Positions 3,805 through 53,350 of a stretch of DNA of 64,000 nt are shown here, in pieces (within the stretch, counting starts at the first letter, position 1; each line of letters begins with the position of its first letter). The notes below the pieces were generated by a model. The model was not told the DNA's origin. It searched no databases and saw only the letters and a list, made by a program, of their open reading frames with translations. Source of the stretch: Parcubacteria group bacterium (GTDB taxonomy: Bacteria > Patescibacteriota > Minisyncoccia > Phycocordibacterales > DATDWN01); the NCBI GenBank assembly GCA_035438705.1, contig DAORIV010000003.1:4699-68698 (forward strand), given 5' to 3'. A program made the translations under genes and the position numbers.

Positions 3805-6800
3805 TTAAAACTCTTTGTATATAAATGATCTCGCAACAAAATTCGCCGTCACACTCGTATCAGCATTCACAGTAATATTACATGTTGTAGATGTTCCTGA
3901 ACATGCACCAGACCACCCTGTGAATTTCCAATATGATGATGAAGGTACTGCAGTTAAAGTGATGTTTGATCCAGCAGATACACTTTCAGAACAGTCTGCT
4001 CCACAGTTGATACCTGGGCCTGTGATTCGGCCACCCAAAGATGCTGCGGCATTAACAGTTAATACATATGTCGAAGGAGCTGTAACAGTAACTGTGTTTG
4101 AAACTGCATGTTGTACAAGGATGTTGTCATTGTCCCATAGTCTGAAATTGTAGTTACCAGGTGTTACTGGTGCTGTAAATGTACAACTACCAGAGCTTCT
4201 AGATGAACCAGGTACTGTTTGAGTACATGGTGATACACCTTCATATTTCCAATCTAAGAATGAGTTACCTGTGTTGCCTAATATATACATTCCAATCCAG
4301 TCTCTTACAGTAGGTGTTGGTACGTTTGCAAATGTAACTGTTACTGTACCTCCTGGTGCAATTGAAGATGGTGAAGCAGATAGTGTTGGTGCAGGAACAG
4401 AAGTTGTTGTAAATGAACTTACTGTAGAGTAACCAGTCCCTGTTGTGTTAGTTGCATATCCTCTGTAGTAGATAGTTGTTCCTGATGGCATACCAGTTCT
4501 AGCATGTGTGAATACTCCAGTTGTAAGTCCTGATGCTGGTGTACAGTTGGTTACCGGTGGATTGACTGTTCCCCAACATGTTCCTCGAGCAGATATTGCA
4601 GCTGGTACACCTAGTGATGTTACGTTTGCACCAAGTGTTGCACCTGTTGTGGTGATGCCGGAGACTGTTGGGGTTGTAACAGTAGGAACAGTTGGAACAA
4701 GAAGATCGAACAATGACCCTTGAATCCAACCACTTGGATGACCAAACAAATTATATACATGGCCAGAAATAACATTACCAGTTGTAGGTGTAGTAAATGA
4801 TGGATCATACCTTACTACAAAATTAACTGTTCTATTGTTACCTGATGTTGATGTTGAACATGAATCAAGATTTACATAACCATGACCAAATCCCGTATTA
4901 CCTCCAGTGGACTGTATCACAGCCCAACCACCCCCAGTACATGCTATATGATTTTTGTCAGATGGCCACCAATCAGTACTACCCCAAGTTAAATATCCTC
5001 TGTATGTTCCTGCGTTTGCACCTTGAATATTTGTAAGTGCATAAACTTGAGAAACATTTGTGCCTGCAGTTGGATCATACGCAACAGCAGTTATGGTGTG
5101 TTGGGTAGAATTGTTTGTTGTCACAGGTGAAGGACTTATTGTTACAGAATTTATGGTCGGCATATTCAATCCGAAATTGATATCAAAATGTTCCCAAGGA
5201 CTATAATTGTTATTTGAGTTATAAGTAATACCGTGAATATCATTATTGGTAACTGTTGTTGAATATGCGGGTTCAAAAACCATTACAAAATTTACTGTTC
5301 TTGAATTAGATGTGTTTGTGGTATTACAACTTATAAGTCTTACATATTGATCTCCATATCCTGCCCAACCTCCAGCAGAAAGAATCGCTCCATAACCCCC
5401 ACCTGTACAAGCCATTGGATTCTTGTGACCAGTAAATGCACTGACTGATGTCCAAGCAAACCAACCCTTATTTATTCCATTTCCATCTCTCAGTAGTGCG
5501 TATTGATATGTTATTTTTGAAGAACCTCCAGTGTCTGCCCCAGTATGTGAAATTGTGTATTGAGTAGTTCCATTTGGAGTAACCATTGGTGAACTTATAG
5601 TCACATTATTTGTTGTTGGGGTTGTAACTCCAGTAAATGTAACCCCTGCACTATAGTTTGCATTAAGCAGGCCTTCACAACGAATGCCAACACCACTAGC
5701 TGGACACAGAGGTGTCCAAACAAATGGACCTCCGGTAGTATCGTGAACAGCGTCAATAGTTACATATGTATTGGTTGGAAGGGGTAGAGAACATGTTGCA
5801 TTTCTACATGAACCTATGTATGTAAGTGGCTGTCCTGCTCCAGTGCTTGAGTACCCCATTGCCGTTCCAGGTCCACTTGCGGTAAAAGTAAGTGTAGATA
5901 TTGTTCCACCACAACTATTTACCGTACATGAATTACTACAAGCCCTAGGACATGAACCATTATTTACACCTGTGTCACATTGCTCTCCAGCTTCAACCAC
6001 ACCATTACCACAACTAGATGATGAGCATGAATTTACCGTACATGAATTACTACAAGCCCTAGGACATGAACCATTATTTACACCTGTGTCACATTGCTCT
6101 CCAGCATTTATAATATTATTACCGCAATTTACTGGAGGCGATACAATAGCGACATTTATTGGTTGTGAATTTACATTTTTTGTTCCATAACCACCATATC
6201 CAGTTGCTTGTAAATTAAAAGTTGCCGTACCGACTGCTGTACCGGTACATGTTGTACCGTTAGTATCACCTGCAACCGATGCTCCATCAGCTATATCACA
6301 GCTGACAGGACCACTATAGCTTAGCACTGAATCACCTGTCCTTTCTGTTGCATTCCATGTTATATCAAACTGTCCACCTACTGCCATTGTTGAATTTGTA
6401 GTGTTAAATCCATTTATGGAAACTTCTCTACCATTCATATTAAAATTCACACTTGCATCTGCGTCATTTACATAAACATCAGCACTGACATAATTAAAAT
6501 TATTTGATGTAGCCCCAATACTTACAGTATTATTTGGTATACTCCCACTTGCATCACCTATATTTCCGGCTCCATTTGCATCAACAACATTCCAACAAGA
6601 ACCTGTCCACATACCTCCACCGCTGTTTATACAGACACTGATACCATACTTTCCCCCAGATGGACCTAGTGCTCCGTGTCCATCATATGTACCAGAAATA
6701 TCTACCGAATATACTTGTTTCTCTGTTCCAAAAGGTGGTGTGTTTATTACTGAAGATGCACTACTTCCATGCCTTGATATTGAAACTGTTTGAGAATATG

Positions 6801-6885
6801 AACCAGTAGATCCATTAACCACTGATTGTGTGAAAAAAAATGTTATAACTATTATTAATACTTTAATAAAATTAATTTTTTTCAT
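3805..6885 (-). CDS. Large secreted cell-surface protein with CGNG..GEQCD cysteine-rich repeats and tandem Gly/Trp-rich repeats
   Basis: A 1026-aa ORF with the N-terminal signal peptide MKKINFIKVLIIVITFFFTQSVVNGS. It has two tandem copies of GEQCDTGVNNGSCPRACSNSCTVNSC, which resemble Myxococcales-type Cys-rich repeats. It is rich in Thr, Ser, Gly and Asn. Confidence 0.8.
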   Translation of the reverse strand: MKKINFIKVLIIVITFFFTQSVVNGSTGSYSQTVSISRHGSSASSVINTPPFGTEKQVYSVDISGTYDGHGALGPSGGKYGISVCINSGGGMWTGSCWNVVDANGAGNIGDASGSIPNNTVSIGATSNNFNYVSADVYVNDADASVNFNMNGREVSINGFNTTNSTMAVGGQFDITWNATERTGDSVLSYSGPVSCDIADGASVAGDTNGTTCTGTAVGTATFNLQATGYGGYGTKNVNSQPINVAIVSPPVNCGNNIINAGEQCDTGVNNGSCPRACSNSCTVNSCSSSSCGNGVVEAGEQCDTGVNNGSCPRACSNSCTVNSCGGTISTLTFTASGPGTAMGYSSTGAGQPLTYIGSCRNATCSLPLPTNTYVTIDAVHDTTGGPFVWTPLCPASGVGIRCEGLLNANYSAGVTFTGVTTPTTNNVTISSPMVTPNGTTQYTISHTGADTGGSSKITYQYALLRDGNGINKGWFAWTSVSAFTGHKNPMACTGGGYGAILSAGGWAGYGDQYVRLISCNTTNTSNSRTVNFVMVFEPAYSTTVTNNDIHGITYNSNNNYSPWEHFDINFGLNMPTINSVTISPSPVTTNNSTQHTITAVAYDPTAGTNVSQVYALTNIQGANAGTYRGYLTWGSTDWWPSDKNHIACTGGGWAVIQSTGGNTGFGHGYVNLDSCSTSTSGNNRTVNFVVRYDPSFTTPTTGNVISGHVYNLFGHPSGWIQGSLFDLLVPTVPTVTTPTVSGITTTGATLGANVTSLGVPAAISARGTCWGTVNPPVTNCTPASGLTTGVFTHARTGMPSGTTIYYRGYATNTTGTGYSTVSSFTTTSVPAPTLSASPSSIAPGGTVTVTFANVPTPTVRDWIGMYILGNTGNSFLDWKYEGVSPCTQTVPGSSRSSGSCTFTAPVTPGNYNFRLWDNDNILVQHAVSNTVTVTAPSTYVLTVNAAASLGGRITGPGINCGADCSESVSAGSNITLTAVPSSSYWKFTGWSGACSGTSTTCNITVNADTSVTANFVARSFIYKEF

Positions 6886-11923: not shown

Positions 11924-13276
11924 CTACTTATAAATTACATTTATAACATTAGGTTTTTTCTGGCACAAATTAGATGCAATGTTTGCATAAACCGTTGAAA
12001 GAGTCTCTTTTGTTGGTGATAGAAAATAATAACTATCTTTCGTAGAAATAGACTTTAGAAAACCGTCACTGACATTTTTACCCAAACCAACAGTGTATAT
12101 CTCAATGTTTGAATTTTTTATAGTTTCTGCTGTCTGTTGTGCAGAAAGCGTTGGAAAATCAGGATTATTTGGGTCCACTGGCAAAGTAGGTAATCCATCT
12201 GTTAAAAATATTATTGCTTTCTTTGATGATGATCTTGCAACTCCTGAGGTCAATTCAGTTAGTGCATCCTGTAAACCAGCATGGATATTAGTATTTTCTT
12301 GTGTAGTCGTACTCAAAGATAAATTCTCTATAGACGTAATTACACTCTGTTTATCTAAAGATAAGTTATTTTCTATCTTAGATAAATTTCCAAAAGTAAC
12401 TATAGAAACCTGATCATCTGTTTTTAGATTCTTAACAAAATTCTTTGCAGTATTTACCACGGTAGTGAATGGTTCTGGTGGAAACAGTCCTTCACTTCTC
12501 ATGCTTCCTGACCTGTCTAATGCTAATACAACATCTAATGGAGCAGTGCAAGATTCCACACCAAGGTCAAATGGTTTAGGCCATGTAAAAACAAAATCCT
12601 GTGTACTTTTTCTTATTAGATTTTCAACAAAGGATCTACTTGCTGCCACCACATTCTGATTGCCATCCAAAACAAAAACTGCTAATTCTATTTCTTTAAT
12701 ATTGGTTGAGGAGTTATTGGTTATAGTTCCAGAAATTCTTGGAATTGTGCTAGTAGATATTAAAGTACCATATTTTAGAGTTACATCAGGTTCAGGCTCA
12801 GTATCCTTTAGCCAAGATGAAAACGCTGTAAAATCCATATCTACACTTTTTGGCTTACTACCTTTCAACACTAAACCATTTTCAAAAACCGCGAATTTTT
12901 TTCCTTTTGGAATACTTGTTTGCCCTTCTTTGACAGTTATCAGCTTGTTACTTTCATCGTATATTTTGAATTCATAATTAGCTCTTTCATTTCGAGAATT
13001 AATATTTGGATTTTCTACATAAGAAACTAAAGTATACACATCACCTGAAACATTAAATATTTTGGACCACAAAACAATTGGTTCCAATGTCTCAGCACTA
13101 CAAAGATTTACACAACCGCCCCCACAGTCAACACCTGTTTCATCTCCATTTTTCAAACCATCCATACAAGTAGGAGCTTTATAAAAAACCTTATAGAAAA
13201 TAGTTAAACTTATAATTAATAATATAAGAACAAAAGTTCCTCCATATATTAGTCTTCCTCTAGATGCCCATGACAT
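11924..13276 (-). CDS. Membrane-anchored von Willebrand factor A (vWA) domain protein
   Basis: It has an N-terminal TM helix and a Cys-rich stretch. DVVLALDRSGSM matches the MIDAS (metal-ion-dependent adhesion site) start of a vWA domain. Confidence 0.7.
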   Translation of the reverse strand: MSWASRGRLIYGGTFVLILLIISLTIFYKVFYKAPTCMDGLKNGDETGVDCGGGCVNLCSAETLEPIVLWSKIFNVSGDVYTLVSYVENPNINSRNERANYEFKIYDESNKLITVKEGQTSIPKGKKFAVFENGLVLKGSKPKSVDMDFTAFSSWLKDTEPEPDVTLKYGTLISTSTIPRISGTITNNSSTNIKEIELAVFVLDGNQNVVAASRSFVENLIRKSTQDFVFTWPKPFDLGVESCTAPLDVVLALDRSGSMRSEGLFPPEPFTTVVNTAKNFVKNLKTDDQVSIVTFGNLSKIENNLSLDKQSVITSIENLSLSTTTQENTNIHAGLQDALTELTSGVARSSSKKAIIFLTDGLPTLPVDPNNPDFPTLSAQQTAETIKNSNIEIYTVGLGKNVSDGFLKSISTKDSYYFLSPTKETLSTVYANIASNLCQKKPNVINVIYK

Positions 13277-13526: not shown

Positions 13527-13833
13527 AGTGATTGTTAAATTTCCTAATAGAAATCGGCTAATTAGTACACCTCGGCTACACATATTGCTATGCTTCCACC
13601 TAGTGCCTATCACGTGATCATCTCTCACGGGCCTCAAACGATTCCTAATCTTGAAGTTGGTTTCACTCTTAGATGCTTTCAGAGTTTATCCATTCCCGAC
13701 TTAGCTACTCTGCGGTGCCCTTGGCAGGACAGCAGACACACCAGAGGTCAGTTCACCCCGGTCCTCTCGTACTAGGGGCAAATCTTCTCAAGAATCAACG
13801 CCCACAGTAGATAGGAGACCAACCTGTCTCACG

Positions 13834-14409
13834 CATGTTTCCACAAATTACTTTGTGCATTGGACTATAACTTCATGTACCGAAAGGCACACTGTTGATG
13901 TTTAGTCTCTACGGGCGTTTATGAATTTCATCAAGAATGCGATACAAAATCGCAAATGTTTTGTTGCCACCCAAAAAAGGGTGGCGACCCTAACTGGATT
14001 CGAACCAGTGTCCTCGCTTTTCTTTTGGATGAGCAAGTGTCCTAGGCCTCTGGACGATAGGGTCCTAACAAAACGAAAGAACGACATTTCTCACTTGAGA
14101 AATGGCGGTAGTGAAAATGAGATCCCTGTACTAGCGGTCCTCGCTCTTCGAGCCAACGGCGTGCCAGTCTGGTCTATCTTCACTACCTCAACAATTCTTG
14201 ATGAAATTCACAAACTTCCCTCGGTATTATCCAAAACAAAAAATTAAATTGTTTGGACTCCACCGATATAAATCAACTTTAATCGCACGAATGCGACCGC
14301 CGTGATTTGATTGGTTCCTTATCTTTATTCATAAACGAAAATTCCTCTGAGGATTCAGATTGTGGAGAAATCCAGATTTTTTAGCAAGCTAAAAAGAAAT
14401 GAAATTCTC
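13834..14409 (-). other. Putative ORF-less self-splicing intron (group I-like), ~576 nt, inserted in 23S at the I-CreI/I-CeuI-type site (E. coli ~2593)
   Basis: The exon sequence CTGTCTCACG | ... | ACGGTCTGAACCCAGCTCGCGTAAG is contiguous in all uninterrupted 23S rRNAs (GGGTTTAGAACGTCGTGAGACAG). The insert has no sense-strand ORF longer than 61 aa. Confidence 0.6.
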
Positions 14410-15042
14410 CACGGTCTGAACCCAGCTCGCGTAAGATTTTAAATGGCGAACAGCCATACCCTTGGGAGCTTCTTCACCCCCAGGATATCTTGAGCCGACA
14501 TCGAGGTGCCGAACTGTGCCGTCGCTATGGACGCTTAGGCACAACCAGCCTGTTATCCCCAGGGTAGCTTTTATCCGATAATCTCCGGCCGCCTCTAAAA
14601 CGGACCGTCGGTTCACTATGTTCCACTTTCGTGTCTGTTTGACAAGTACGTCTTACAGTTAAGCCAGCTTATGCCATTACACTATCGGTATGGTTTCCAT
14701 TCACACCTAGCTGACCTTAATAAACTCCTCCGTTACTCTTTAGGAGGATAGCGCCCCACTAAAACTGCCCACCAGAAACTGTCTCTGTCCGTTTTTTCCG
14801 TACAGGTTAGAAAGTATATCAAACAAGATGGCTATTTCACTGACGACTCCAGGCTACCCGAAAGTGCCCTTCAAAGTCTCACCACTATGCTACGCATGCA
14901 AAACATACCCTCAATATCAAGTTGCAGTAAAGCTCCTGGGGTCTTTTCGTCTAACTGCGGGTAACCGGCATCTTCACCGGTATTGTATTTTCACCGAGCA
15001 AATCCCCGAGACAGTTCTCCAGTCATTATACCATTCGTGCAC

Positions 15043-15390
<348 letters not shown>

Positions 15391-16802
15391 CAGGGCTTAT
15401 ATAATCAACCTAAAATCTTGCGACTCTCGGCTACCATATTTGACCTTCTGGCATTGGTCAGGCATCACCCCCTATACATCCTCTTACGAGTTCGCAGGGA
15501 GCTGTGTTTTTGATAAACAGTTGCCAGAGATACTTTAGCTGCGGCCCACCGAAGTGGGCAAGCCTTATTCCGAAGTTACGGCTGCTTTTTTGCCGAGTTC
15601 CTTGGGGATCTCTCACTCGTTCGCCTTGGTCTACTCGACCTGACTACCTGTGTCGGTTTACGGTACGGATCTTATGTGATTAAGCTTAGAAATTTTTCTT
15701 GAAAGCGTGCTTTGTATAATCCCCTAGACTTACGCCCGGGTTTAAATACTGCTTGGTATTATCATTTAAGAAAGTGTGCGGATTTACCTACACAGCTACC
15801 TCACAGTACATACTCAAATCCAATAATGAGCTATACATACTACCCTCCGTCCTTCCATCGCATCACACAAAAGTGCAGGAATATTAACCTGCTGTCCATC
15901 GGCTGCGACTCTCGTCATTGCCTTAGGCCCGACTAACCCTGCTCTGATTGACATTGAACAGGAAACCTCAGTCTTTCGGCGCTGGGGGTTCTCGCCCCAG
16001 TTGTGGTTACTTGTGCCAACATTCTTACTTCGCAACGCTCCAGCGTGGGTCACCCCTTCGCCTTCACAGCAGATACGAATACTCTCCTACCGCTTGTCTT
16101 TTCCGAAGAAAAAACAAACCCTCAGTTTCGGTACATAACTTAGCCCCGATTATTTGCGGCGCGGAATCTCTTACTGAGTGAGCTGTTACGCTATCTTTCA
16201 AGGGTGGCTGCTTCTAAGCCTACCTCCTCAGTGTCTACGAAATTCCACCACCTTAAGCGCACTTAGTTATGATTTAGGGACCTTAAATAGAGATCTAGGC
16301 TGTTTCCTTTTTGACGTACGGAGCTTAGCCCCCGCCGTCTAACTGCCGTATAGTTAATCTTCCGTATTCGGAGTTTGATAGGTCTCACGAGATTGCTCCC
16401 TGTTGAGACCTTCCAGTGCTCTACCCCGGAAGGGTAAATACGACGCTAGCCCAAAAGCTATTTCGGAGAGAACCAGCTATTACCAGGCTCGATTAGCTTT
16501 TCACTTCTTACCACAAGTCATCCCAATGTATTGCACGGCAAACGGGTTCGGGCCTCCATCTATCTTTCGATAAACTTCACCCTGCTCATGGCAAGCTCGC
16601 TCTGGCTTCGGGTCTAATGCACACGATATATTCGCGCTATTCACACTCGGTTTCCCTGAGACTCCATCCGACAAAGGACTTAGTCAAACCGCGTACATTA
16701 ACTCGTTGGCTCATTCTTCAATAGGCACGCCGTGACGGATATAAATACCCGCTCCGACTCCTTGTAAGCATATGGTTTCAGATCTATTTCACTCCCCTTA
16801 TA

Positions 16803-16845
<43 letters not shown>

Positions 16846-17430
16846 ATCTTTAAATGTATTTAGCCTTACCGGTTAGTACCGGCAGATTCCTCCGAGCTAT
16901 TCATGTCTCGAAGTACTCAAGAACAGAAACAAAGAAGATATTATTTTTTCGCTCACGGGACCATTACCCTCTAGGGTTGTGCTTTCCAGCACATTAAACT
17001 AAAATAATATTTTTTAACTTCTCTCACAATAAATTGTGACGTCTCTGCCTTACAACCCCACCCCGCCATCCTCATTTCCAATTTCTCAGAAACAAAGATA
17101 GAAGGGTGGTTTGGGCTTTTGCGTTTTCGCTCGCCGCTATTTACGCAATAACAATTGTTCTCTTTTCCTCCAGGTACTGAAATGTTTTACTTCCCTGGGT
17201 GCACGATCTAGATAAACTCTAGACCAACGACATGTAGTCGTTAGGTTTCCCCATTCAGAAATTTTCGGATTAACGGTTGCTAGGCACCTCCCCGAAACTT
17301 ATCGCAGCCATGCTACGTCTTTCATCGCCATTTAAAGTCAAGGCATCCACCATACGCTCTTAAATTTCCCATTAGGAAATTTAAAAACCACAAGTTACAA
17401 AAAACGACCACTCGCTTTTTATAACAATTA

Positions 17431-29838: not shown

Positions 29839-30921
29839 ATGATGAAGAAAAAGGCACCAAAAGAGCCGAAAAAAATGATGAGTGATGCGGGAGGTGTAAA
29901 TGTTGAAAATACACTTCGAGAAATTAGAACTAAATTTGGTGATGACTCAATCATGATGCTTGGAGACAAACCTCATGTAGATGTAAATTCAATATCTACT
30001 GGTTCTATTGGATTAGACACAGCACTTGGAGTTGGAGGATTGCCACGTGGAAGAATAATTGAAATTTTTGGTCCTGAATCTTCAGGAAAAACCACCCTAT
30101 CGCTACATGTTGTAGCAGAAGCACAGAAAAAAGGAGGTATATGCGCATTCATTGATGCTGAACATGCTATGGACCCAGAATATGCCCAAAGACTAGGTGT
30201 TAATATAAATCAATTACTCATATCTCAACCAGATAACGGCGAACAAGCTTTGGAAATTGTTGAATCTTTGGTTAGATCAGGAAAATTAGATGTTATTGTC
30301 ATTGACTCTGTTGCAGCCTTAACTCCTAGAGATGAAATCGAGGGAGATATGGGTTCTCACCATGTTGGTAAACAAGCTCGTCTAATGTCACAGGCACTAA
30401 GGAAACTAACTGCGATAGTGGCTAAATCCAAAACAATAGTCATTTTCCTAAACCAAATCCGAATGCAAATAGGTGTTATGTTTGGAAACCCAGAGACTAC
30501 TCCAGGTGGAAAAGCTTTGAAATTCTACACTTCTGTACGTATAGACATACGCCGAATAGCCCAGATAAAAAAGGGTGAAGAAATAATGGGAGGAAGAATA
30601 AGAGTAAAGGTTGTAAAAAACAAAGTCGCTGCTCCTTTCAAACAGACAGAGTTTGATCTAATGTATAACGAAGGAATCTCCCGTGAAGGTGAACTCATCG
30701 CTTTGGGAGAAAAAATGGGAGTCATTACAAAATCTGGAACGAGTTATAGCTTTGGAGAAGAAAAACTTGGGCGTGGATATGATGCAACAAGACAGTTTTT
30801 GAAAGACAAAGCTAACAAAAAAATAGCTGATGCCATCTTAAAGGAGATTCGCTCAGGACTAGATAAGAATGGAGGTTCTGTGGTTGCAAGCTCTGGTAGT
30901 GAATCTGAAAGCTCTGAATAA
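29839..30921 (+). CDS. recA: Recombinase RecA
   Basis: Walker A motif GPESSGKTT, plus the L1/L2 loops and the typical RecA core. An extended -10 (TGTATAAT) lies ~40 nt upstream. Confidence 0.95.
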
Positions 30922-30926
30922 AATAT

Positions 30927-31322
30927 ATGAAATATAATAAAAATAGAGGTTATATAGCACTTATAACCTCTATTTTTATATCTGTAATTCTTTTTTCCAT
31001 TACACTAAAACAAAATATTGATGGTTGGAATAGTAACTATGGAATAATTGAAAATGAATCAAAATTTCAATCCAAGACACTTGCAGAAAGGTGTGTAGAT
31101 GTATCAATAATAAAAATACTAAATGATACTTATGTGGAAGGTACAACAAATTATGATAATGGATCTTGTAAAAGTTTTATCAAAGAAACAAATTCCCCTG
31201 AAATAGGTTTGACTAAATTTAAAACACAAGCAGTAGTAAACAAATCTTTTACAAACATAGAAACTGTTTTAAATCATCAAACAATGAAAATTATTTCAAA
31301 AAAAGAAATACCGAAAATTTAG
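30927..31322 (+). CDS. Hypothetical protein with an N-terminal TM helix (possible divergent pilin-like protein)
   Basis: A 131-aa ORF starting MKYNKNRGYIALITSIFISVILFS, positioned between recA and the pilin gene. Confidence 0.4.
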   Translation: MKYNKNRGYIALITSIFISVILFSITLKQNIDGWNSNYGIIENESKFQSKTLAERCVDVSIIKILNDTYVEGTTNYDNGSCKSFIKETNSPEIGLTKFKTQAVVNKSFTNIETVLNHQTMKIISKKEIPKI

Positions 31323-31421
31323 CTCGAAACACACAACACAATAGAAAATTTGGTCAACTTGTATATAAAAACAATAGGAGTAAAGTGGTATCAATTAATA
31401 AGTTTGATTAATGTAAATTTT

Positions 31422-31922
31422 ATGAAAAAATTGAAAAAATCAGGTTTTACTCTTATAGAAATACTGATAGTAATAGGTATTATTGCGATCCTTGCCTCAA
31501 TAGTTATCATTGCCATAAACCCGAGTAAACAGTTTGCCCAAGCCAGAAATACTCAAAGACAAGCAGGAGTAAATGCAATATTAAATGCAATAGGTCAAAG
31601 AATAGCCGACAATAAAGGTGTATTTGCTGGAACATTTGCTGTAAACGGTGCAACTTATACATGTGGGCCCCTACCTACTGGAGCAACCACGACAATAACA
31701 ACAACAATGGCAACTGACACCACGACTCAGACTGGGAGCTTGGGGTGCCTTATTCCTACATATATACCCACTCTACCGTCTGACCCTGACTCTACCGTAA
31801 TTCCCCCAGCAACAGGTTTTGATGTCGTAGTAGATGGTTCTGGCAGAACAAAAGTATGTGCCAGTCTGGCCTCAAACGAAACTTCAATACCGAATTCTGG
31901 TCCGATTTGTGTTACTAGATAA
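31422..31922 (+). CDS. Type IV pilin (prepilin with a class III signal peptide)
   Basis: MKKLKKSG|FTLIEILIVIGIIAILASI is the canonical prepilin peptidase motif (G/FTLIE). The ORF track starts it at an upstream TTG (31350). Confidence 0.75.
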   Translation: MKKLKKSGFTLIEILIVIGIIAILASIVIIAINPSKQFAQARNTQRQAGVNAILNAIGQRIADNKGVFAGTFAVNGATYTCGPLPTGATTTITTTMATDTTTQTGSLGCLIPTYIPTLPSDPDSTVIPPATGFDVVVDGSGRTKVCASLASNETSIPNSGPICVTR

Positions 31923-31955
31923 AATTGGTTTTTAGGGTTGATGTATAATTAAAAA

Positions 31956-34127
31956 ATGGAAATCAATTCCCTTCTTGAAAAAGAGTTTAGATTAAATCCT
32001 GGGCAAAAAAGTGCTTTAAAAAAATTAGGCTTAAGTAGTCTAGAAGATTTACTTTATCACTTTCCAACTAGATATGGAGACACTAGCGAAATAAAATATA
32101 TTCAAAGCCTAAAAAAAGGCGATACCTCTGTTATATTTGGTAAAATCTCTGGACTAAAAACATCCAAAGCTTTTATCAAAAAAATCCCAATGTCTGAAGC
32201 TTATTTAACAGATGAAACTGGGAAAATTAAACTTGTTTGGTTTAACCAACCCTACATAGCAAAAATGATAGCTGAAGGCAGTACTGTAAGAATTGAAGGT
32301 AAGGTATCAGAAAGAAAGAATGAACTGTATATAAACAACCCTAAGATTGAAATGGTTGGAAATATACCAGATGCAGTGGGTAATTCCCTATTCGGACAAG
32401 ATGCAAAAGACGAGCATACAATGTACCCCGTGTATCCAGAATCAAAAGGTATTTCATCTTTATGGTTTTATCATGCAATACAAAAAATATTTAATTCGAA
32501 GTTGCTAGATACAATAAAAGATCCCATTCCTGAGGATATACTTAAAAAATATAATCTTCCCAACATTAGAACTGCATTCATTTGGATTCATACACCAAGA
32601 AAAACCGATGATAGCTTGTCAGCAAAAAAAAGATTTGCTTTCCAAGAGATATTTTTTATACAAATTCAAAAACAACAAGAGAAAAAAATATGGTCTGAAA
32701 AAAGTAGTTGGTCACTTGAAACCAATAATAATGACATTCTGGACTTCGTTAATAGATTCCCATTTAAACCGACTTCGTATCAGCTTGATGCAATCAAATC
32801 TATAACTCTAGACTTTAAAAGAGGCTACCCCATGTCGAGACTACTTGAAGGAGATGTAGGCTCTGGTAAAACTGCTGTTGCAGCAGCAACAATATATGCA
32901 ATTACAAAATCAAGACCAACAGATGACTCTGGTGAAAAAATTACTGGTAATCTACAAACTGCTTATATGGTACCCACCGAAATTCTAGCTAAGCAACATT
33001 ATGAAAATTTTATAAATTATTTTAGTCATTTACCTATTAAAATTGGCCTACTCACTGGAAGTGAATGTAGAATATTTCCATCAAAAAGTGAACCCACAAA
33101 ATCTACTAAAATTTCAAAAGCTCAGCTATTAAAATGGGTAGCAAATGGAGAAATCCCTATACTCATTGGAACACATGCATTAATCCAAAAAAGTGTGACT
33201 TTTAAGCATTTAGCATATGTGGTAATCGACGAACAGCATAGATTCGGAACATTGCAGAGACAAAAAATTACTCTCAAAAGTGACAAGACTCCACACCTTT
33301 TATCTATGACAGCAACTCCAATACCTAGAACACTTGCACTTACAATATATGGTGATCTGGATATCACAGTTTTAGAAGGAATGCCTCATGGTAGGAAACC
33401 AATAATTACAAAAGTTGTTCTGCCAACAGACAGAGAAAAAGTTTACTCGGAAATTAAAAATGAACTAAACTCTGGTAGACAACTATATGTAATATGTCCA
33501 AGAATTGATGAGCCAGATCCAACAAAAGAAATGGCTGTGATGGCTAAATCAGTAAAACTAGAAGCCGAAAGATTAAGCAATGATGTTTTCCCAGATTACA
33601 TGATTGATATTCTTCATTCAAAAATGACACCAACTGAAAAAGAAGAGGTTATGAATGATTTTGAAGAAAAGAAAACTGACATACTGGTAGCAACTTCAGT
33701 TGTAGAAGTTGGTGTAAATGTTCCGAATGCGACCATGATAATTATTGAAGGTGCAGAAAGATTTGGTCTTTCACAATTACACCAACTAAGAGGAAGAGTC
33801 ATAAGATCCACTCATCAGGCATATTGTTATATTTTCCCTGAAAGCACCGGGCAAAAAACTAAAGATAGAATGAAGGCATTAACTACAGCCAAAAATGGTT
33901 TCGAATTGGCAGAATTTGATTTACAACAAAGAGGTGCTGGAGAGCTATACGGCAGAAAACAATGGGGCATCTCTGATATAGCAATGGAAGCAATCAAAAA
34001 TATTAAAATGGTAGAAGCAAGTAGGACAGAAGCTTCGAGAATAGTTGATTCTGGTGTAAACCTTGAAAAATATATTGAAATAAAAAAATATATTGAAAAT
34101 CAAAACAGTAAAATTCACTTTGAATAA
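31956..34127 (+). CDS. recG: ATP-dependent DNA helicase RecG
   Basis: A 723-aa ORF with an N-terminal wedge/OB region, helicase motif I LLEGDVGSGKT, motif II DEQHRFG and the C-terminal helicase domain. Confidence 0.9.
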   Translation: MEINSLLEKEFRLNPGQKSALKKLGLSSLEDLLYHFPTRYGDTSEIKYIQSLKKGDTSVIFGKISGLKTSKAFIKKIPMSEAYLTDETGKIKLVWFNQPYIAKMIAEGSTVRIEGKVSERKNELYINNPKIEMVGNIPDAVGNSLFGQDAKDEHTMYPVYPESKGISSLWFYHAIQKIFNSKLLDTIKDPIPEDILKKYNLPNIRTAFIWIHTPRKTDDSLSAKKRFAFQEIFFIQIQKQQEKKIWSEKSSWSLETNNNDILDFVNRFPFKPTSYQLDAIKSITLDFKRGYPMSRLLEGDVGSGKTAVAAATIYAITKSRPTDDSGEKITGNLQTAYMVPTEILAKQHYENFINYFSHLPIKIGLLTGSECRIFPSKSEPTKSTKISKAQLLKWVANGEIPILIGTHALIQKSVTFKHLAYVVIDEQHRFGTLQRQKITLKSDKTPHLLSMTATPIPRTLALTIYGDLDITVLEGMPHGRKPIITKVVLPTDREKVYSEIKNELNSGRQLYVICPRIDEPDPTKEMAVMAKSVKLEAERLSNDVFPDYMIDILHSKMTPTEKEEVMNDFEEKKTDILVATSVVEVGVNVPNATMIIIEGAERFGLSQLHQLRGRVIRSTHQAYCYIFPESTGQKTKDRMKALTTAKNGFELAEFDLQQRGAGELYGRKQWGISDIAMEAIKNIKMVEASRTEASRIVDSGVNLEKYIEIKKYIENQNSKIHFE

Positions 34128-37656: not shown

Positions 37657-38047
37657 GGGGATGACAGGTATAGACAGATAAGTTCATTGAAAATTGTGCA
37701 TGGTAGAGTTGTGATAACTCTTTAAACTTTCACAAAGCATAGATGCTAAAAACACCTTTGCAAAAGCTATCCCTTCACCATTTATGGCGAATGGATACGC
37801 TCTCGCTTTCGCTTAATCTATAAGATTTAAGCCAAAGCGGCGGCCACTCCCCTAAGTCTGTTACGGGAAATGGTTGATATATCTTCGGACTAGAAATTAT
37901 TTGTGTTTCCAAATAATTTTGAAACAAAGAAAACAAAAATCTGATTTATTTTGTTTATTTGAAGAATTAGATTAAATTAAATAAACTAAACCATGTAGAT
38001 CGATTCTCAAAATTTATTTGCACCCGGCTTCAATGCCGGCTTCTCCA
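37657..38047 (+). ncRNA. ssrA: Transfer-messenger RNA (tmRNA)
   Basis: It lies immediately downstream of smpB. The 5' GGGGAUG pairs with the 3' CUUCUCC-A, forming an acceptor stem that includes a G3-U pair (the Ala identity element). There is a T-arm-like CCGGC-UUCAAU-GCCGG. The in-frame tag ORF GCG AAT GGA TAC GCT CTC GCT TTC GCT TAA encodes ANGYALAFA. Confidence 0.7.
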
Positions 38048-38181
38048 CAAATTAAAACATTAGCGCCCAAAAGGGTGCTTTTGTTTTTATTTAAAGAACC
38101 GCCTTCGGGCGTGCTTTTCTGTTTGACACCCAACTCAAATTCCTGTAATACAAGGCAATGAGAGACTTTTAAGTTAAGTCC

Positions 38182-38640
38182 ATGAAAGAACCCAAATACA
38201 CAAAACAGGGGTTTACACTAACAGAAATACTCATAGTTGTAGGTTTAATCACTATGATTGGTATCATAGTCCCAATTTTTAATTCAAACACTCTACACAA
38301 AGAATCTTTTGAAGCAGAGATAGAGAAAATTACCGACCTTCTTTTCAAAGCAAGACATAATTCTCAAAACAATATAAACCAAAGCAAACATGGAGTATTT
38401 ATACAAAATGAAGGATACACTTTGTTTGAGGGAAATTCATTTGCATTAAGTGAACCTCAAAATAATATTTTTATTAAAAGTGAATACCCTATCCAAATAG
38501 CAACAACTTCAATAGTTGAAATAATTTTTAATGAATCAAGTGCTGAAGTCACAAACAAAGGCGAAATAATGGTAACTGATAAATTCACAAATAAAGTAGT
38601 TAGTATAAAAATAAATCATGAAGGACAAATCAACTATTAA
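38182..38640 (+). CDS. Pseudopilin / minor type IV pilin (prepilin-type N-terminal methylation domain)
   Basis: The N-terminus MKEPKYTKQG|FTLTEILIVVGLITMIGII carries the prepilin cleavage motif. Confidence 0.65.
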   Translation: MKEPKYTKQGFTLTEILIVVGLITMIGIIVPIFNSNTLHKESFEAEIEKITDLLFKARHNSQNNINQSKHGVFIQNEGYTLFEGNSFALSEPQNNIFIKSEYPIQIATTSIVEIIFNESSAEVTNKGEIMVTDKFTNKVVSIKINHEGQINY

Positions 38641-40111
38641 TTTTTCGGGTTTCTCTACTATAGAAATAGTGATAGCGCTTGCTGTTTTGTCTTCTGCATT
38701 AGTTCTCGGAATGTATGGAACTTACAGTGGTCAGTACTGGAGAGAAGCATCATCAGTACGACTAGAAGCTGTATATGAAAATCAAAGTATAAATGAGGAA
38801 CTAAAAAAATACACAGACAGTAACTTCTACAACAGTACATCATCAGATTTCACAATAGTAGACCCGAATTGTATCCAAGGCAACCTTTGTTATTACACAG
38901 AAATACATACCGAAGAAATATCTATTTGCTTAAAAAACACTGAAATTACAACACAGTTCAAATTAAGCAATTATCCAACCACCAGTATTGATAGCACCAT
39001 TTATCCACTTAACAACTCTGAATATATTAAAAATAGTGGAGACTGCATATTAAAAACTCCAAGTGGTGACTGGAACAGCCCCCTACATAGCATTGGCTAT
39101 TTAGAGTCTCCGGGTTTAGGTCAAAACGATTCCAAAAGTATCGGAGACTACATTTATATTGCCAATAATAACTCCCCTACATTTGTTATTTACAAAAAAG
39201 AGAATGACACTTTAGTTAAAATTAGTACTTTTGATGTTCAAATAAATAATTTTAGTACAAAAATTAACGCTTTTGATATATACAAAAACTACACAAGTAA
39301 TAGGACCTATGTTTTTGCCACACTCGCAACAAGCACTAAACAACTTGCCGTGTTAGATATAACTGATCCTGAAAACATACAATCAAAATCGTTTTTAAGT
39401 TTCAAAAACGTAAACCCTTCAGGATCATTCCCCCAAGGGTACAAAGTACTTGTATATGATAACCGTGTATATGCTGTCACCAGAGAAACATCAGGATATG
39501 AATTTCATATCTTCAATATTGAGAATGTAGATAATATTTTTGAAATTGGAAATGGTTTTGAATTAAACAGAACAGTTAATGAAATACTTGTTAGAGACCA
39601 GATGGTAAACAATCAAGAAAAAAGATTGGTGTTTTTAGCCTCAGATTCAAATATTAAAGAGCTAAGTATATTGGATGTTACAAATGATGTTGTGTCGGAA
39701 ATAAATTCAATCAACTTGCCTGGCAATCAAGACGGCCTAAGTTTATTCTCTTCAGGTGAACTATTATACTTGGGAAGAAGTAGTAACACTCAAGGAGGTG
39801 AACTGTATGCATTTAACATAAAGCATCCACAAAACCCAATCAGCATTTTGTCACAAGCAGAAGTTTCAGCAAATGTAAACCACATAAAAGCATCGGGGGA
39901 ATATATTTTCTTGAGCACCAATCGTGCGGGAGAAACCTTTCAGGTGTGGGATAGAAACCATGATATTTGGAATAGCACTTTAAATACAGGTAGACTAAAC
40001 AGCCACAACTTCCCCAACCTGAACAATATTGAACTAAACGAGGGTTGGATAAGCTTGATTAACAACTCAACTATTTCTGACAAAATTCAGTTGCTAAAAG
40101 GATATGAGTAG
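38618..40111 (+). CDS. Pilin-like protein with a large C-terminal beta-propeller-like (LVIVD/YVTN-type) repeat domain; candidate pilus-tip adhesin
   Basis: It starts with the prepilin-like N-terminus SG|FSTIEIVIALAVLSSALV. About 450 aa follow with repeated blades (YVFATLA..LAVLDITDP, LVFLASD..LSILDVTND, LYLGRSS..LYAFNI) that look like a beta-propeller. It overlaps both neighbouring pseudopilin genes. Confidence 0.55.
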   Translation: MKDKSTINFSGFSTIEIVIALAVLSSALVLGMYGTYSGQYWREASSVRLEAVYENQSINEELKKYTDSNFYNSTSSDFTIVDPNCIQGNLCYYTEIHTEEISICLKNTEITTQFKLSNYPTTSIDSTIYPLNNSEYIKNSGDCILKTPSGDWNSPLHSIGYLESPGLGQNDSKSIGDYIYIANNNSPTFVIYKKENDTLVKISTFDVQINNFSTKINAFDIYKNYTSNRTYVFATLATSTKQLAVLDITDPENIQSKSFLSFKNVNPSGSFPQGYKVLVYDNRVYAVTRETSGYEFHIFNIENVDNIFEIGNGFELNRTVNEILVRDQMVNNQEKRLVFLASDSNIKELSILDVTNDVVSEINSINLPGNQDGLSLFSSGELLYLGRSSNTQGGELYAFNIKHPQNPISILSQAEVSANVNHIKASGEYIFLSTNRAGETFQVWDRNHDIWNSTLNTGRLNSHNFPNLNNIELNEGWISLINNSTISDKIQLLKGYE

Positions 40112-40556
40112 AACAAACAAAACAAAAGGCATAACACTTATTGAAACCATAATCTACATTGGTCTATTAGGTATTATTATTTATGGTGGAATTTTCACCA
40201 CTTTCCACATGGTTGAAATTGGCAACAAAAACTCAAACTATTCAAAAATACTAAATGAAGCTATTTTTATAAATAATAAAATCAACTGGATACTTACGAA
40301 CAGCACTTCAATTGAAGTTTTAAACAATTCACTTATTGTTAACAAAGAAGGTTTAAATGAGAATAATCCCTTAGTGCTAAAACAAAATAGTAAAAATATA
40401 ACTTTAAAACGCGGGCAAAATGAAGATAATATACTAAACAATGAAAGATATATAATAAGTGATGTAATTATTGACCACAACCCTACTCAAAAATTCATTA
40501 CTATAAAATATAAAATTAATAACCAAAACTTTAGTTATAAAAAATATTTAAATTAG
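40104..40556 (+). CDS. Pseudopilin / minor pilin
   Basis: The N-terminus is KG|ITLIETIIYIGLLGIIIYG. Confidence 0.6.
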   Translation: MSRTNKTKGITLIETIIYIGLLGIIIYGGIFTTFHMVEIGNKNSNYSKILNEAIFINNKINWILTNSTSIEVLNNSLIVNKEGLNENNPLVLKQNSKNITLKRGQNEDNILNNERYIISDVIIDHNPTQKFITIKYKINNQNFSYKKYLN

Positions 40557-49921: not shown

Positions 49922-52900
49922 TTATCTCAGAATAGAGAAAGTGGTCTCTCCACCAATATCTGGAACGTTATACTTCTGTTTTTCTTCTGTATAAGAAATA
50001 TCATTAACTCCAGTTGGAGATTTAATCATTTCCAGGTGTTTATATATAATTCCCTGCTTGTCTGTACAAAAAACAATGTTTACTACATCACTAGGATTTA
50101 ATTTTTCTGTTTTCCTTGCATCTTGAATAGCTCGAATAATATCTCTAGCAACACCTTCTTCTATAAGTTCTGGGGTTAAGTTGGTATCAAGTTTCACCTC
50201 ATCACCAACCACTACCTCTTTTACATTAACCTCATCAGCTATGATACTTAGTAACTCCTCTGAAAAACTTTCCTTTATTATAAGTGTGTTTAATGGCTGT
50301 CTTACCTTGTGGCCAGACTTTTGTCTAAGCTCCAAAGCCAAAGTAACATTCTCTCTAACCTTACTCATACTATCTATCAAAGAAGAATCAGTATCTCCGC
50401 CATTTGGCCAGAAGTCTAAATGCACACTTTCTTTTGATTCTGGATTCTTCATTTTTTGGTACACTTCTTCCGCAAAGAAAGGTGTAAATGGTGCCATATA
50501 TTTTGAAAGTTCGATTAGTACAAAGGCTGTTGTTGCCAGTGCTTCATTTCTTTCTTCAGCATTCTCAGATTTAAATCTATCTCTTGAGCGTCTTACATAC
50601 CAAGTAGAAAAATCGTTTACAAAATCCCTTATTGGCCTAGCAGATTCAAAAACTTGAAACTTCTCTAATGTTTTTGTTCCACCCTCAACCAACTCGTTTA
50701 GTCGTGACAAAATCCATTTATCCAAAACATTTTGACTTTTGTTATGTGGTAGTGTTTTGTCATCTTTGTACAACTCATAGAATGCAACAATGTTTAGAAG
50801 TGGGTTGAAAACTTTTTTAACTATTTCATCGACAGTTTTCTCATCAAAGTTTTTTGAATCCCCTGGCTGGTTAACCATATACATCCAAAGTCGTAGTGCA
50901 TCTACTCCGTATTTATTCATAAGCTCCCAAGGATCAAGAATGTTTCCAACAGACTTAGACATTTTCTTTCCGTCTTTATCTAGAATATGCCCAAGACAAA
51001 TTACATTCTTAAATGCCCTACCCTTACCCATAAGTATTCCTATTGCATGTAATGTATAGAACCATCCACGAGTCTGATCTATTGCTTCAGAAATAAAGTC
51101 TGCTGGGTATGCAAGCTCATTTTTATTCCAAGGGAAATGATCTTGTGCAAAAGGCATCGAGCCAGAGTCAAACCAAACGTCCATAACTTCCCTAACCCTT
51201 TTAAGTGAGCTTCCTTTTTCATCAACAAGCTCAACACCATCTATATATGGCTTATGCAGATCAACTTCATATTCTGAATTGTGTGGTAGTGGAATAAAAG
51301 AAATTTCGTGAACTTCTGCATTTCTTATAAACTCTTCTTTATCCTTTCCAAATAATGACGTTTCTACTCTGTTGTATCCTCTACTTGCAGATTCCAAAGC
51401 CCAAGCTGTGTGTTCGTGGGTCACAAAAAGTATCACTTCATTTGTATTTGTTTTATCTACATCATACAAAAGGTTTCCTGTTCTATTTTTAACATCAGAC
51501 AAATTTTCACCCTGCTCAGGCCTAATATCAAAAATATCCTCATCAGTTTTTATTAACTTATGATACTCATCTACCGACTGTCCTGACATAACCCCCAAGT
51601 CATGTTCTCCAAGTCTATCATCGAAAGTGAGTTTATCCTCTGTTAGCCCAAGTACTTCTCTTATTATTTCTGCAGTTTCTGTAGTGCGCACAAAAGGAGA
51701 AGAGATTATTTTTGTAATACCTTTTTCTTTCAAAACTTTTGCCGACTCTTCTACTTGTTTCCTGCCTTTTTCAGTAAGGTGAAAATTGTCTTCTTTTTTA
51801 CAACTCAAAATATTTGCAACATTATGTTCACCTTCACCGTGTCGAACTAGGAAATATTTATTTCCATTAGTTTTTATATATTTCTTTAAATCATCCAAAC
51901 CTCCTATTACTTTTATATTTCCTTCAGAATCTTGCCAAACTGGGAGTGGAGTTCCCCAATATCTCTCCCGAGAAATAGCCCAATCTTTTATTTCTCGAAG
52001 CCACTCTCCAAAACGTCCTTCTTTTATGTGTGAAGGTTCCCAGACTATGTTTTCATTCTCTTTCACAAGTTCTTCACGAAGTTTTGACATAGCGATATAC
52101 CATGAATCCCTTGCATAATAGATAAGTGGAGTTTTACATCTCCAGCAGTGTGGATATGAGTGCTCGTATTTTTCTTTCTTAAATAGCAATCCTCTGTGAG
52201 CCAAATCTTTTATTATATCTACTGCGACTTCTTCATCTTTAACAAATCTGTTAGACAAAAAATCCATACCATCTAGAAAATTCCCATCATCTTTAACTAA
52301 GTGAAACTTAGGGAGACCGATTTGTGTTCCCAAAATAAAATCATCTTGTCCGTACATTACTGCTGTATGAACAATTCCTGTTCCATCGGTTGTGGTTACA
52401 AAATCTGCAGAGTAAACCTTATACGCTTTTGCAAACGATTCTTTGTCTTTCTCCTCAAACTTCTGCACGAGGAATGGATACAGTGGTTCATACTCCATTC
52501 CAACCATTTCACTACCCTTATGTTCGGCAATAATCTCATATTCACCCTGTATCACTGAAAGTCTTTCTTTTGCTAAAACTAAAATCTCGCTGCCATTTTC
52601 TGTAGCGATTTTTACTTCTACATATACCACATCCTTTCCAACAGCAAGACCTACATTTCCTGGAAGTGTCCAAGGTGTAGTTGTCCACGCAAGAAAATAT
52701 CCATTTTCAGTTCCTCTTATTTTAAACTTTGCAGTTACAGAAAGATCTTTATCATCTTGATAACCTTGTGCTAGTTCATGTGATGACAATGCTGTTCCAC
52801 AACGTGGACACCAAGGTAGGACTTTGTAGTCTTTATATAACAACCCTCTATCATTTACAGTTTTTACAATATTCCAAACAGACTCTATATAGCTTGTATC

Positions 52901-53350
52901 GAAAGTATAATATGCATCTTTTTTATCAACCCAGTAACCTATTCTATCTGTAAATTTTTCCCAGTCGCCAATGTATTCAAACACACTGTCTTTACACTGC
53001 TTATTAAACTCTTCTACTCCATATTGTTCTATTTCTTTTTTAGATTTAAGACCAAGTTTTTTCTCAATCTGGAGCTCAACAGGAAGTCCATGTGTATCCC
53101 AACCTGCCTTTCTTCTCACGTTAAAACCTTGCATCGTTTTGAAACGAGGAATGATGTCTTTAAAAACCCTAGACTCTAAGTGGTGTAGAGCTGGTTTAGC
53201 ATTTGCAGTTGGAGGACCTTCATAGAAAACAAACTTACCTTTTGGAGCATCTTTTTCCAATGTTTTTTTAAACACTTCTTTTTCTTGCCAGAATTTTAAA
53301 ACTTCTTCTTCTTTGAGTGCTGTTTGTGATTTTTGTGTTTCTGGATTCAT
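49922..53350 (-). CDS. ileS: Isoleucyl-tRNA synthetase carrying an inserted histidine-phosphatase (phosphoglycerate-mutase-like) domain
   Basis: The IleRS core is recognisable: a HIGH-region, the CP1 editing domain (WTTTPWTLP), WGTPLPVW, DVWFDSGS and KMSKS. Between WGTPLPVW and DVWFDSGS lie ~240 extra residues with all four histidine-phosphatase motifs: LVRHGEGEHN, SSPFVRTTETA, DDRLGEHDLG and FVTHEHT. The total length is 1142 aa. Confidence 0.85.
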   Translation of the reverse strand: MNPETQKSQTALKEEEVLKFWQEKEVFKKTLEKDAPKGKFVFYEGPPTANAKPALHHLESRVFKDIIPRFKTMQGFNVRRKAGWDTHGLPVELQIEKKLGLKSKKEIEQYGVEEFNKQCKDSVFEYIGDWEKFTDRIGYWVDKKDAYYTFDTSYIESVWNIVKTVNDRGLLYKDYKVLPWCPRCGTALSSHELAQGYQDDKDLSVTAKFKIRGTENGYFLAWTTTPWTLPGNVGLAVGKDVVYVEVKIATENGSEILVLAKERLSVIQGEYEIIAEHKGSEMVGMEYEPLYPFLVQKFEEKDKESFAKAYKVYSADFVTTTDGTGIVHTAVMYGQDDFILGTQIGLPKFHLVKDDGNFLDGMDFLSNRFVKDEEVAVDIIKDLAHRGLLFKKEKYEHSYPHCWRCKTPLIYYARDSWYIAMSKLREELVKENENIVWEPSHIKEGRFGEWLREIKDWAISRERYWGTPLPVWQDSEGNIKVIGGLDDLKKYIKTNGNKYFLVRHGEGEHNVANILSCKKEDNFHLTEKGRKQVEESAKVLKEKGITKIISSPFVRTTETAEIIREVLGLTEDKLTFDDRLGEHDLGVMSGQSVDEYHKLIKTDEDIFDIRPEQGENLSDVKNRTGNLLYDVDKTNTNEVILFVTHEHTAWALESASRGYNRVETSLFGKDKEEFIRNAEVHEISFIPLPHNSEYEVDLHKPYIDGVELVDEKGSSLKRVREVMDVWFDSGSMPFAQDHFPWNKNELAYPADFISEAIDQTRGWFYTLHAIGILMGKGRAFKNVICLGHILDKDGKKMSKSVGNILDPWELMNKYGVDALRLWMYMVNQPGDSKNFDEKTVDEIVKKVFNPLLNIVAFYELYKDDKTLPHNKSQNVLDKWILSRLNELVEGGTKTLEKFQVFESARPIRDFVNDFSTWYVRRSRDRFKSENAEERNEALATTAFVLIELSKYMAPFTPFFAEEVYQKMKNPESKESVHLDFWPNGGDTDSSLIDSMSKVRENVTLALELRQKSGHKVRQPLNTLIIKESFSEELLSIIADEVNVKEVVVGDEVKLDTNLTPELIEEGVARDIIRAIQDARKTEKLNPSDVVNIVFCTDKQGIIYKHLEMIKSPTGVNDISYTEEKQKYNVPDIGGETTFSILR

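Follow-up and report, generated by a model that had tools for sequence, protein, structure and literature searches.

A minor pilin fused to a seven-bladed LVIVD-type propeller, a likely attachment module of type IV filaments in Patescibacteria

What kind of protein is encoded by the middle gene of a small pilin cluster found in a Parcubacteria genome, and what role could it play on a type IV filament? The cluster lies in a stretch of 64,000 nucleotides of Parcubacteria group bacterium (assembly GCA_035438705.1, contig DAORIV010000003.1, positions 4,699 to 68,698 of the forward strand), hereafter the window, and comprises three overlapping genes that we call P1, PROP, and P3 (Table 1). An original prediction, made from the sequence without database searches, held that each of the three begins with a prepilin-peptidase site and that the middle protein continues into a propeller-like domain, so that a pilin covalently fused to a propeller would carry a binding module directly to the pilus tip. 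The three overlapping open reading frames (ORFs) were indeed found on the plus strand exactly where they had been placed, and the sites QG/FTLTE, SG/FSTIE, and KG/ITLIE (the slash marks the cut) are present in them to the letter. The cluster is a minor-pilin group, and our results support the view that PROP combines, in one polypeptide, a pilin bearing a class III signal and a seven-bladed LVIVD-type propeller. We give a probability of roughly 0.65 to the broader interpretation that PROP is a modular type IV minor pilin, likely a tip attachment module, which occupies the second position among the four minor pilins of an operon for a type IV filament, conserved in Patescibacteria and split in this genome.

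The N-terminus of PROP reads MKDKSTINFSG/FSTIEIVIALAVLSSALVLG, namely, a short hydrophilic leader with a Gly followed by a hydrophobic stretch with a Glu at position +5. The Gly (G11, position -1) and the Glu (E16, position +5) are invariant in 52 PROP homologues, the alignment of which contains only six invariant columns, and the motif G-x4-E is found near the N-terminus in 164 of the 191 PROP-family proteins of 440-600 amino acids. By eye, the remaining 27 look mostly like N-terminally truncated gene calls or GGSTLE and GQSxxE variants that fall outside the search pattern. The invariance of both residues and the frequency of the motif support a class III prepilin signal rather than a signal peptide cleaved by signal peptidase I, and prepilin peptidase most likely cleaves PROP after G11. 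The Pfam family N_methyl (PF07963) matches 22 of the 52 homologues (best E value 1.2e-5), and TIGR02532 reaches the pilin module of PROP with an E value of 0.3. N_methyl is also detected in P1 (E 3.4e-4) and P3 (E 1.5e-3). Among 19 orthologues of each of these two proteins, G10, F11, and E15 are invariant in P1, and E14 and Y18 in P3, where the Gly of the site is nearly invariant. As the site residues are conserved across the homologues of all three proteins, these prepilin sites are not chance matches.

A structural model of PROP, obtained by running AlphaFold2 on the alignment of the family, reached a mean predicted local distance difference test (pLDDT) score of 89.7 and a predicted template modelling score of 0.85. 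Its parts follow one another in the order helix (residues 14-68), four-stranded sheet (78-128), short helix, and propeller. The pilin module displays the lollipop fold, with a 55-residue alpha-1 helix (14-68) on an antiparallel sheet made of strands 78-81, 91-100, 105-115, and 122-128, and its blocks have pLDDT values of 61-91. All four Cys residues of PROP (85, 91, 104, and 143) lie inside this module, C104 and C143 being invariant in the 52 sequences and C85 and C91 in a closer set of 12. They probably form disulfides of the pilin type.

The rest of the protein is a beta-propeller with seven blades of four strands each (28 in total); pLDDT exceeds 90 for most of residues 157-494, so that the structure of the C-terminal region, on which the original prediction depended, is a confidently modelled propeller. 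It is shorter than the approximately 450 amino acids first proposed (approximately 340), since residues 12-145 make up a full pilin module. The last strand of each blade resembles the LVIVD motif (FVIYK, LAVLD, FHIFN, LSILD, LYAFN, FQVWD, and IQLLK), and the Pfam family LVIVD (PF08309) matches 34 of the 52 homologues (best E value 1.5e-13), while Beta_propel matches three of the 52. The LVIVD-like blades anticipated from the sequence are thus borne out in the homologues and in the model, but not in Pfam searches with the window protein alone, whereas the YVTN repeats proposed with them appeared neither in the Pfam and NCBIfam results for PROP nor in the Pfam scan of its homologues. Foldseek comparison of the model with the PDB retrieved mainly beta-propeller proteins, the best ones being the EPTP domain of LGI1 (template modelling score of 0.72 on the target) and WD40 proteins, with lactonases also present. 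The conserved propeller residues that we checked form a Glu-containing motif located before the last strand of blades 3-6; this motif is repeated from one blade to the next and looks structural. Together, the conservation of the signal, the Pfam matches in homologues, and the AlphaFold2 model support the covalent fusion of a pilin to a propeller.

The three genes are closely interlocked, P1 and PROP overlapping by 23 nucleotides and PROP and P3 by 8. Of the 24 sequences examined, which include 20 distinct loci, 21 (17 distinct loci) have the start codon of PROP exactly 23 nucleotides ahead of the P1 stop, embedded in the codons of a conserved P1 C-terminal motif, N-[HYN]-E-G (window 38618-38640). 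This fixed overlap suggests a long-standing translational coupling of P1 and PROP. A TTGACA box upstream of P1, read by eye from the sequence, is a weak candidate for the promoter of the unit (Table 1); a consensus promoter scan found none upstream of P1 and fewer sites in total than in shuffled sequence.

Table 1. Positions of the pilin genes, their domains, and associated features (window numbering unless a related locus, L, is named; a slash marks the predicted prepilin-peptidase cut)
Feature	Position	Strand	Basis or remark
P1, minor pilin, 152 aa	38182-38640	+	ORF; leader MKEPKYTKQG/FTLTE
PROP, pilin-propeller protein, 497 aa	38618-40111	+	ORF; site NFSG/FSTIE
PROP leader peptide MKDKSTINFSG	38618-38650	+	Predicted prepilin-peptidase cut after G11
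PROP pilin module, residues 12-145	38651-39052	+	AlphaFold2 model: alpha-1 helix and four strands
PROP seven-bladed beta-propeller, residues 157-494	39086-40099	+	AlphaFold2 model, Foldseek, LVIVD in homologues
P3, minor pilin, 150 aa	40104-40556	+	ORF; leader MSRTNKTKG/ITLIE
Candidate promoter of the P1-PROP-P3 unit	38113-38141	+	Perfect -35 TTGACA; -10-like TGTAAT/TAATAC 15-17 nt downstream
P4, pilin-like protein, 131 aa	30927-31322	+	...NRG/YIALITS, no Glu at +5; just after recA
Probable major pilin, 166 aa	31422-31922	+	MKKLKKSG/FTLIE; N_methyl E 1.4e-7; TIGR02532 E 2e-7, above cut-off
tmRNA gene	37657-38050		86.9 bits; beside smpB, directly upstream of P1
P4 fusion	L004:10041-14069		
P4 fusion	L009:5897-9895		
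P4 fusion	L011:10020-14048		
P4 fusion	L015:9977-13921		
P4 fusion	L017:10065-14105		

Searching for PROP homologues yielded 62 clusters, nearly all with proteins of 490-540 amino acids, and those with a name belong to Patescibacteria, Minisyncoccia, or Paceibacterota. When 1.84 billion cluster representatives (50% identity level) were searched with a profile, 14,796 of them were retrieved at E ≤ 1e-3 and 1,304 at E ≤ 1e-30. The co-occurrence of the fusion in related genomes, a point raised with the original prediction, hence takes the form of a large Patescibacteria family. Most of the best 150 representatives are matched in a single stretch over their full length (approximately 445-600 amino acids). 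Four longer variants (P0086, P0103, P0144, and P0158; 795-1,998 amino acids) have the same pilin-propeller unit at their start, and the 12 matched stretches in P0086 suggest that several propellers or extra domains can be mounted on one pilin.

To collect related loci we used a subset of 12 sequences, the alignment of 52 being too diverse for a locus scan, and obtained 26 loci, of which 21 are distinct when the clade of the window is set aside (L011 is identical to L004). In 19 of these 21, a GspE/PilB-like ATPase (approximately 400 amino acids) and a GspF/PilC-like platform protein (approximately 350-420 amino acids) precede P1, PROP, and P3 in this order; both motor genes are missing in L007, and in L019 the major pilin is located upstream of the ATPase. 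The hidden Markov model (HMM) matches of the ATPase are to GspE (E 2e-149) and PilB (E 3e-142), with the N-terminal regions of both missing; those of the platform protein are to GspF and PilC, and none of the ATPase or platform matches reaches the equivalog cut-offs. The synteny with pil genes on which the original prediction had placed weight therefore holds in the loci of relatives, but not in the window, where no ATPase, platform, or PilM figures among the ORFs of at least 120 amino acids. After P3, 13 of the 19 loci contain either a fourth pilin-like gene, P4 (134-172 amino acids), or a P4 fusion of approximately 1,330 amino acids; the other six reach the end of the available DNA or efp. 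The P4 sequences open with G-[YF]-[IVL]-[AT]-L, position +5 being hydrophobic. The fusions, which add approximately 1,200 residues to P4, occur in five loci (four distinct), and the three that we scanned (L004, L009, and L017) contain SpaA-like prealbumin-fold and/or vWA domains. With vWA on P4 and the propeller on PROP, the two PilY1 module types are found on two different pilins of one operon. An orthologue of the major pilin of the window (154-183 amino acids) closes the operon in eight loci and lies upstream of the ATPase in one.

In the window, counterparts of P4 and of the terminal pilin are encoded elsewhere, 6 kb upstream of P1. In phmmer comparisons, the window P4 matches both the gene located after P3 in other loci and the N-terminal ends of the approximately 1,330-residue fusions (E 1e-6 to 1e-25); G8 and L12 are invariant in the P4 family, position +5 is hydrophobic, and no Pfam or NCBIfam family matches P4. 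The adjacent probable major pilin matches over its full length the terminal pilin of L004, L006, L009, L012, L015, L017, and L020 (phmmer E 1e-33 to 1e-60). Judged by these sequence comparisons, both genes (30927-31922) are the displaced last two genes of the pilin operon. The same split is present in lineages whose PROP proteins are 97%, 59%, and 46% identical to that of the window. The place held by the ATPase and platform genes in relatives is occupied here by smpB and the tmRNA gene, the latter followed by two terminator-like hairpins, with one terminator-like site at 38062-38079, and efp is found downstream of the cluster. L010 and L026 are intermediate: the order there is ATPase, platform, P1, PROP, P3, and efp. 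The surroundings of the displaced pair are a separate observation: recA, the Glu5-less P4, the probable major pilin, and recG are encoded in this order (window 29839-34127). In Nanosynbacter lyticus TM7x (Saccharibacteria), type IV pilus locus two also couples a RecAX operon with a pilin (PMC11623550), and such a recombination-pilin neighbourhood may recur in Patescibacteria.

How the four minor pilins correspond to those of better known systems can be addressed by profile comparison and gene order. P1 is matched in NCBIfam by ComGD (E 9.1e-5 over residues 9-132), GspH (E 3.9e-3), and weakly by ComGE, all below the cut-offs. The pilin module of PROP, the product of the second gene in the four-gene row, is matched by ComGE in 19 of 19 members, by PilV in 9 of 19, and by XpsI and GspI in 8 and 3 of 19, respectively, equally below the cut-offs. 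GspJ matches are exclusive to P3 (9 of 19 orthologues), for which ComGF was also found in 7 of 19 versus 1 of 19 for the PROP module, again below the cut-offs. A model of P3 built from a homologue search that returned six sequences shows a lollipop with a helix (12-64) and seven strands (pLDDT 75.9); a fold search with it gave nothing significant, the best pseudopilin being the XcpVWX complex (E 1.2). Profile searches of PDB sequences with P1, P3, P4, and the whole family retrieved at most the generic pilin alpha-1 helix, and nothing relevant for P4. GspK and PilX also lack Glu5. Based on these comparisons, the attribution of P1, PROP, P3, and P4 to the GspH, GspI, GspJ, and GspK classes, respectively, is plausible, not established.

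A working scheme for PROP can be proposed from its analogy to GspHIJK, PilVWX-PilY1, and modular pilins (PMC8179133). Prepilin peptidase would cut the protein after G11, and the four minor pilins would then come together on the platform, held by their alpha-1 helices, as a priming complex topped by the Glu5-less P4. The major pilin would polymerise below and push the complex outward, which would leave the propeller at the distal tip, where it would bind a ligand on a surface, most likely that of a host cell. Cleavage, complex formation, tip location, and ligand binding are all drawn from these analogies. We favour adhesion because vWA and/or SpaA-like domains, known as typical modules of adhesins, are present in the three P4 fusions scanned in relatives, and because the deletion of PilX2, a minor pilin and proposed tip adhesin of the thin pilus (T4P-2) of TM7x, approximately halves host binding and leaves competence unaffected (PMC11623550).

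Several results weigh against seeing in PROP a tip-borne pilin of a split operon. The PROP protein of the window has itself no Pfam match of any kind at E ≤ 1, no ligand-binding site was identified in the propeller, and the classes of the minor pilins are assigned from gene order, the missing Glu5 in P4, and HMM matches below the cut-offs. In addition, the ORFs of at least 120 amino acids in the 64-kb window include no ATPase, platform, PilM, or prepilin peptidase, and none of the best 120 matches in a search for ATPase orthologues lies on the 175,226-bp sister contig. The missing N_methyl match in the window protein and the frequency of LVIVD repeats in cell-surface proteins (PMC10210494) would fit an ordinary membrane-anchored or secreted LVIVD surface protein with a coincidentally pilin-like N-terminus, an idea made scarcely credible by the invariant Gly at -1 and Glu at +5, the pilin fold in the model, the two pilins that flank and overlap PROP, and the conserved synteny with the ATPase and the platform. 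True homology of the propeller to the C-terminal domain of PilY1/PilC, followed by fusion to a pilin, is likewise very improbable: none of the 52 homologues matches the PilY1/PilC Pfam family, versus 34 that match LVIVD, a profile search of PDB sequences with the PROP family recovered pilin alpha-1 helices only, and PilY1 does not appear among the top 50 Foldseek PDB matches of the PROP model. This is so even though both are seven-bladed propellers tied to minor pilins at pilus tips and Dataset S1 of Raynaud et al. (2021) contains one architecture with a pilin and IPR008707 (PMC8179133). Since no PilY1 signal was detected in any of the searches run, the comparison with PilY1 made in the original prediction most likely concerns the role only.

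The arrangement of the locus invites two further explanations. In the clade of the window (window, L001-L003, L007, and L024/L025), smpB and the tmRNA gene stand where L010 and L026 have the motor genes, and one could see the cluster as an orphaned remnant that lost its adjacent ATPase and platform and whose proteins are no longer assembled. We hold this to be very unlikely, given that all three ORFs are intact in the lineages with 59% and 46% identity to PROP, that L007 has kept the 23-nucleotide overlap, that P4 and the major pilin have been retained as well, and that in TM7x pilin loci separate from the machinery loci are functional (PMC11623550). Less easily dismissed, although still rather unlikely, is a short pseudopilus resembling the Com or type II secretion ones, whose propeller would serve either to bind DNA or a substrate destined for secretion, or to cap the filament. 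The ATPase without the N-terminal domains of PilB and with its best score for GspE, the absence of PilT and PilMNO genes from the operon, and the location of the window P4 and major pilin between recA and recG all agree with it. The gene content, with an ATPase, a platform, four minor pilins, and one major pilin, resembles that of comGA-GG. However, the recA neighbourhood is not conserved, the whole set forming a single operon away from recA in most loci, the vWA and SpaA-like modules on P4 in relatives point to adhesion, and the thin pilus of TM7x, which carries a propeller pilin, had no effect on competence (PMC11623550). A modular minor pilin that carries its propeller to the tip of a type IV filament thus remains the interpretation that we prefer.

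No new principle is involved in this interpretation, modular tip pilins as well as minor pilins with a propeller having already been described. Raynaud et al. (2021) defined modular pilins, catalogued 1,219 of them, and proposed that they are tip-exposed adhesins (PMC8179133). PROP has the same layout, with an N-terminal pilin, a short linker, and a bulky module that is not pilus-specific, but a propeller instead of the vWA and lectin folds of the Streptococcus sanguinis PilB and PilC. By our own count, approximately 30 proteins in their Dataset S1 have IPR012902 and, after it, at least one IPR013211 (LVIVD) repeat, a class listed without model, operon placement, or study. The sole mention of LVIVD in that work describes it as a motif without known function, in a protein from Falkowbacteria (PMC8179133). 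A full-text literature search found no discussion of LVIVD pilins. The closest studied case, PilX2, is like PROP a Patescibacteria minor pilin with a C-terminal seven-bladed propeller, encoded among minor pilins away from the machinery genes. It differs by its RCC1 repeats and non-canonical signal peptide, as opposed to the LVIVD-type propeller and the canonical invariant Gly and Glu +5 of PROP, and no RCC1 family was found in the Pfam matches of the 52 PROP homologues. Compared on the basis of the published description of PilX2, both look like independent fusions. The idea is less new than the original prediction suggested, as pilins with LVIVD were catalogued in 2021 (PMC8179133) and PilX2 was tested genetically (PMC11623550).

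PilY1/PilC, the tip adhesin of type IVa pili in Pseudomonas, Neisseria, and Myxococcus, places a seven-bladed propeller at the tip, together with four core minor pilins, for priming and adhesion (PMC8179133). It is a non-pilin protein that docks non-covalently and has the signature IPR008707, whereas PROP is itself a pilin and lacks this signature; vWA, the other module type of PilY1, is present in relatives of the PROP operon, but on P4. As here, four minor pilins follow the ATPase and the platform in GspH-I-J-K and ComGD-GG, the last one without Glu5 and one with a large extra domain. The subunit that is enlarged in type II secretion is GspK, which has an alpha-helical insertion; here it is the second one, with a C-terminal propeller. 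CofB and TcpB, of the type IVb class, are likewise large minor pilins that start assembly and have C-terminal beta-rich tip domains (PMC8179133); unlike PROP, they form homotrimers, their extra domains are a beta-repeat and a beta-sandwich, and they belong to another machinery class. The present work contributes the family size, a conserved seven-gene operon that is split in this genome, the conserved 23-nucleotide overlap, and the lack of detectable homology to PilY1.

Other features of the window deserve mention independently of the pilins. A membrane-anchored vWA protein of 450 amino acids (11924-13276, minus strand) was considered as a possible P4-type fusion and rejected, its N-terminus not being pilin-like. 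The match to 23S rRNA on the minus strand (13541-17376) spans 3,836 nucleotides versus 2,925 in the model and includes a tRNA-like Rfam match (13985-14064), which suggests one or more insertions or introns in this gene. An isoleucyl-tRNA-synthetase-like protein of 1,142 amino acids (49922-53350, minus strand) contains a histidine phosphatase domain (His_Phos_1, residues 500-653) that separates both halves of the synthetase domain, and its orthologues in L001 and L025 have the same set of domains. Finally, a secreted protein of 1,026 amino acids (3805-6885, minus strand) contains Cys-rich segments in duplicate (CGNN.INAGEQCDTGVNNGSCPRACSNSCTVNSC is present twice), has an InlB B-repeat domain at its C-terminus, and is flanked by small ORFs of the signal-peptide or lipoprotein type.

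The way in which Patescibacteria, a large and mostly uncultured group, locate and retain their hosts is a central question, on which the genetic evidence has so far come from Saccharibacteria only. We tentatively consider the possibility, somewhat doubtful at this stage, that Nomurabacteria, Kaiserbacteria, Zambryskiibacteria, and their relatives share a dedicated and minimal seven-gene filament whose tip complex has both PilY1 module types built into pilins, the LVIVD propeller on the second pilin (GspI/PilV position) and, in some lineages, a vWA/SpaA-like module on the Glu5-less fourth one. Such a self-contained adhesive tip might be the main device by which these uncultured episymbionts recognise their hosts, with variable modules that set the host range. 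The structural model of PROP and its boundaries (residues 146-497 for the propeller alone) enable ligand screens and the modelling of tip complexes for these organisms, which are not yet cultivable.

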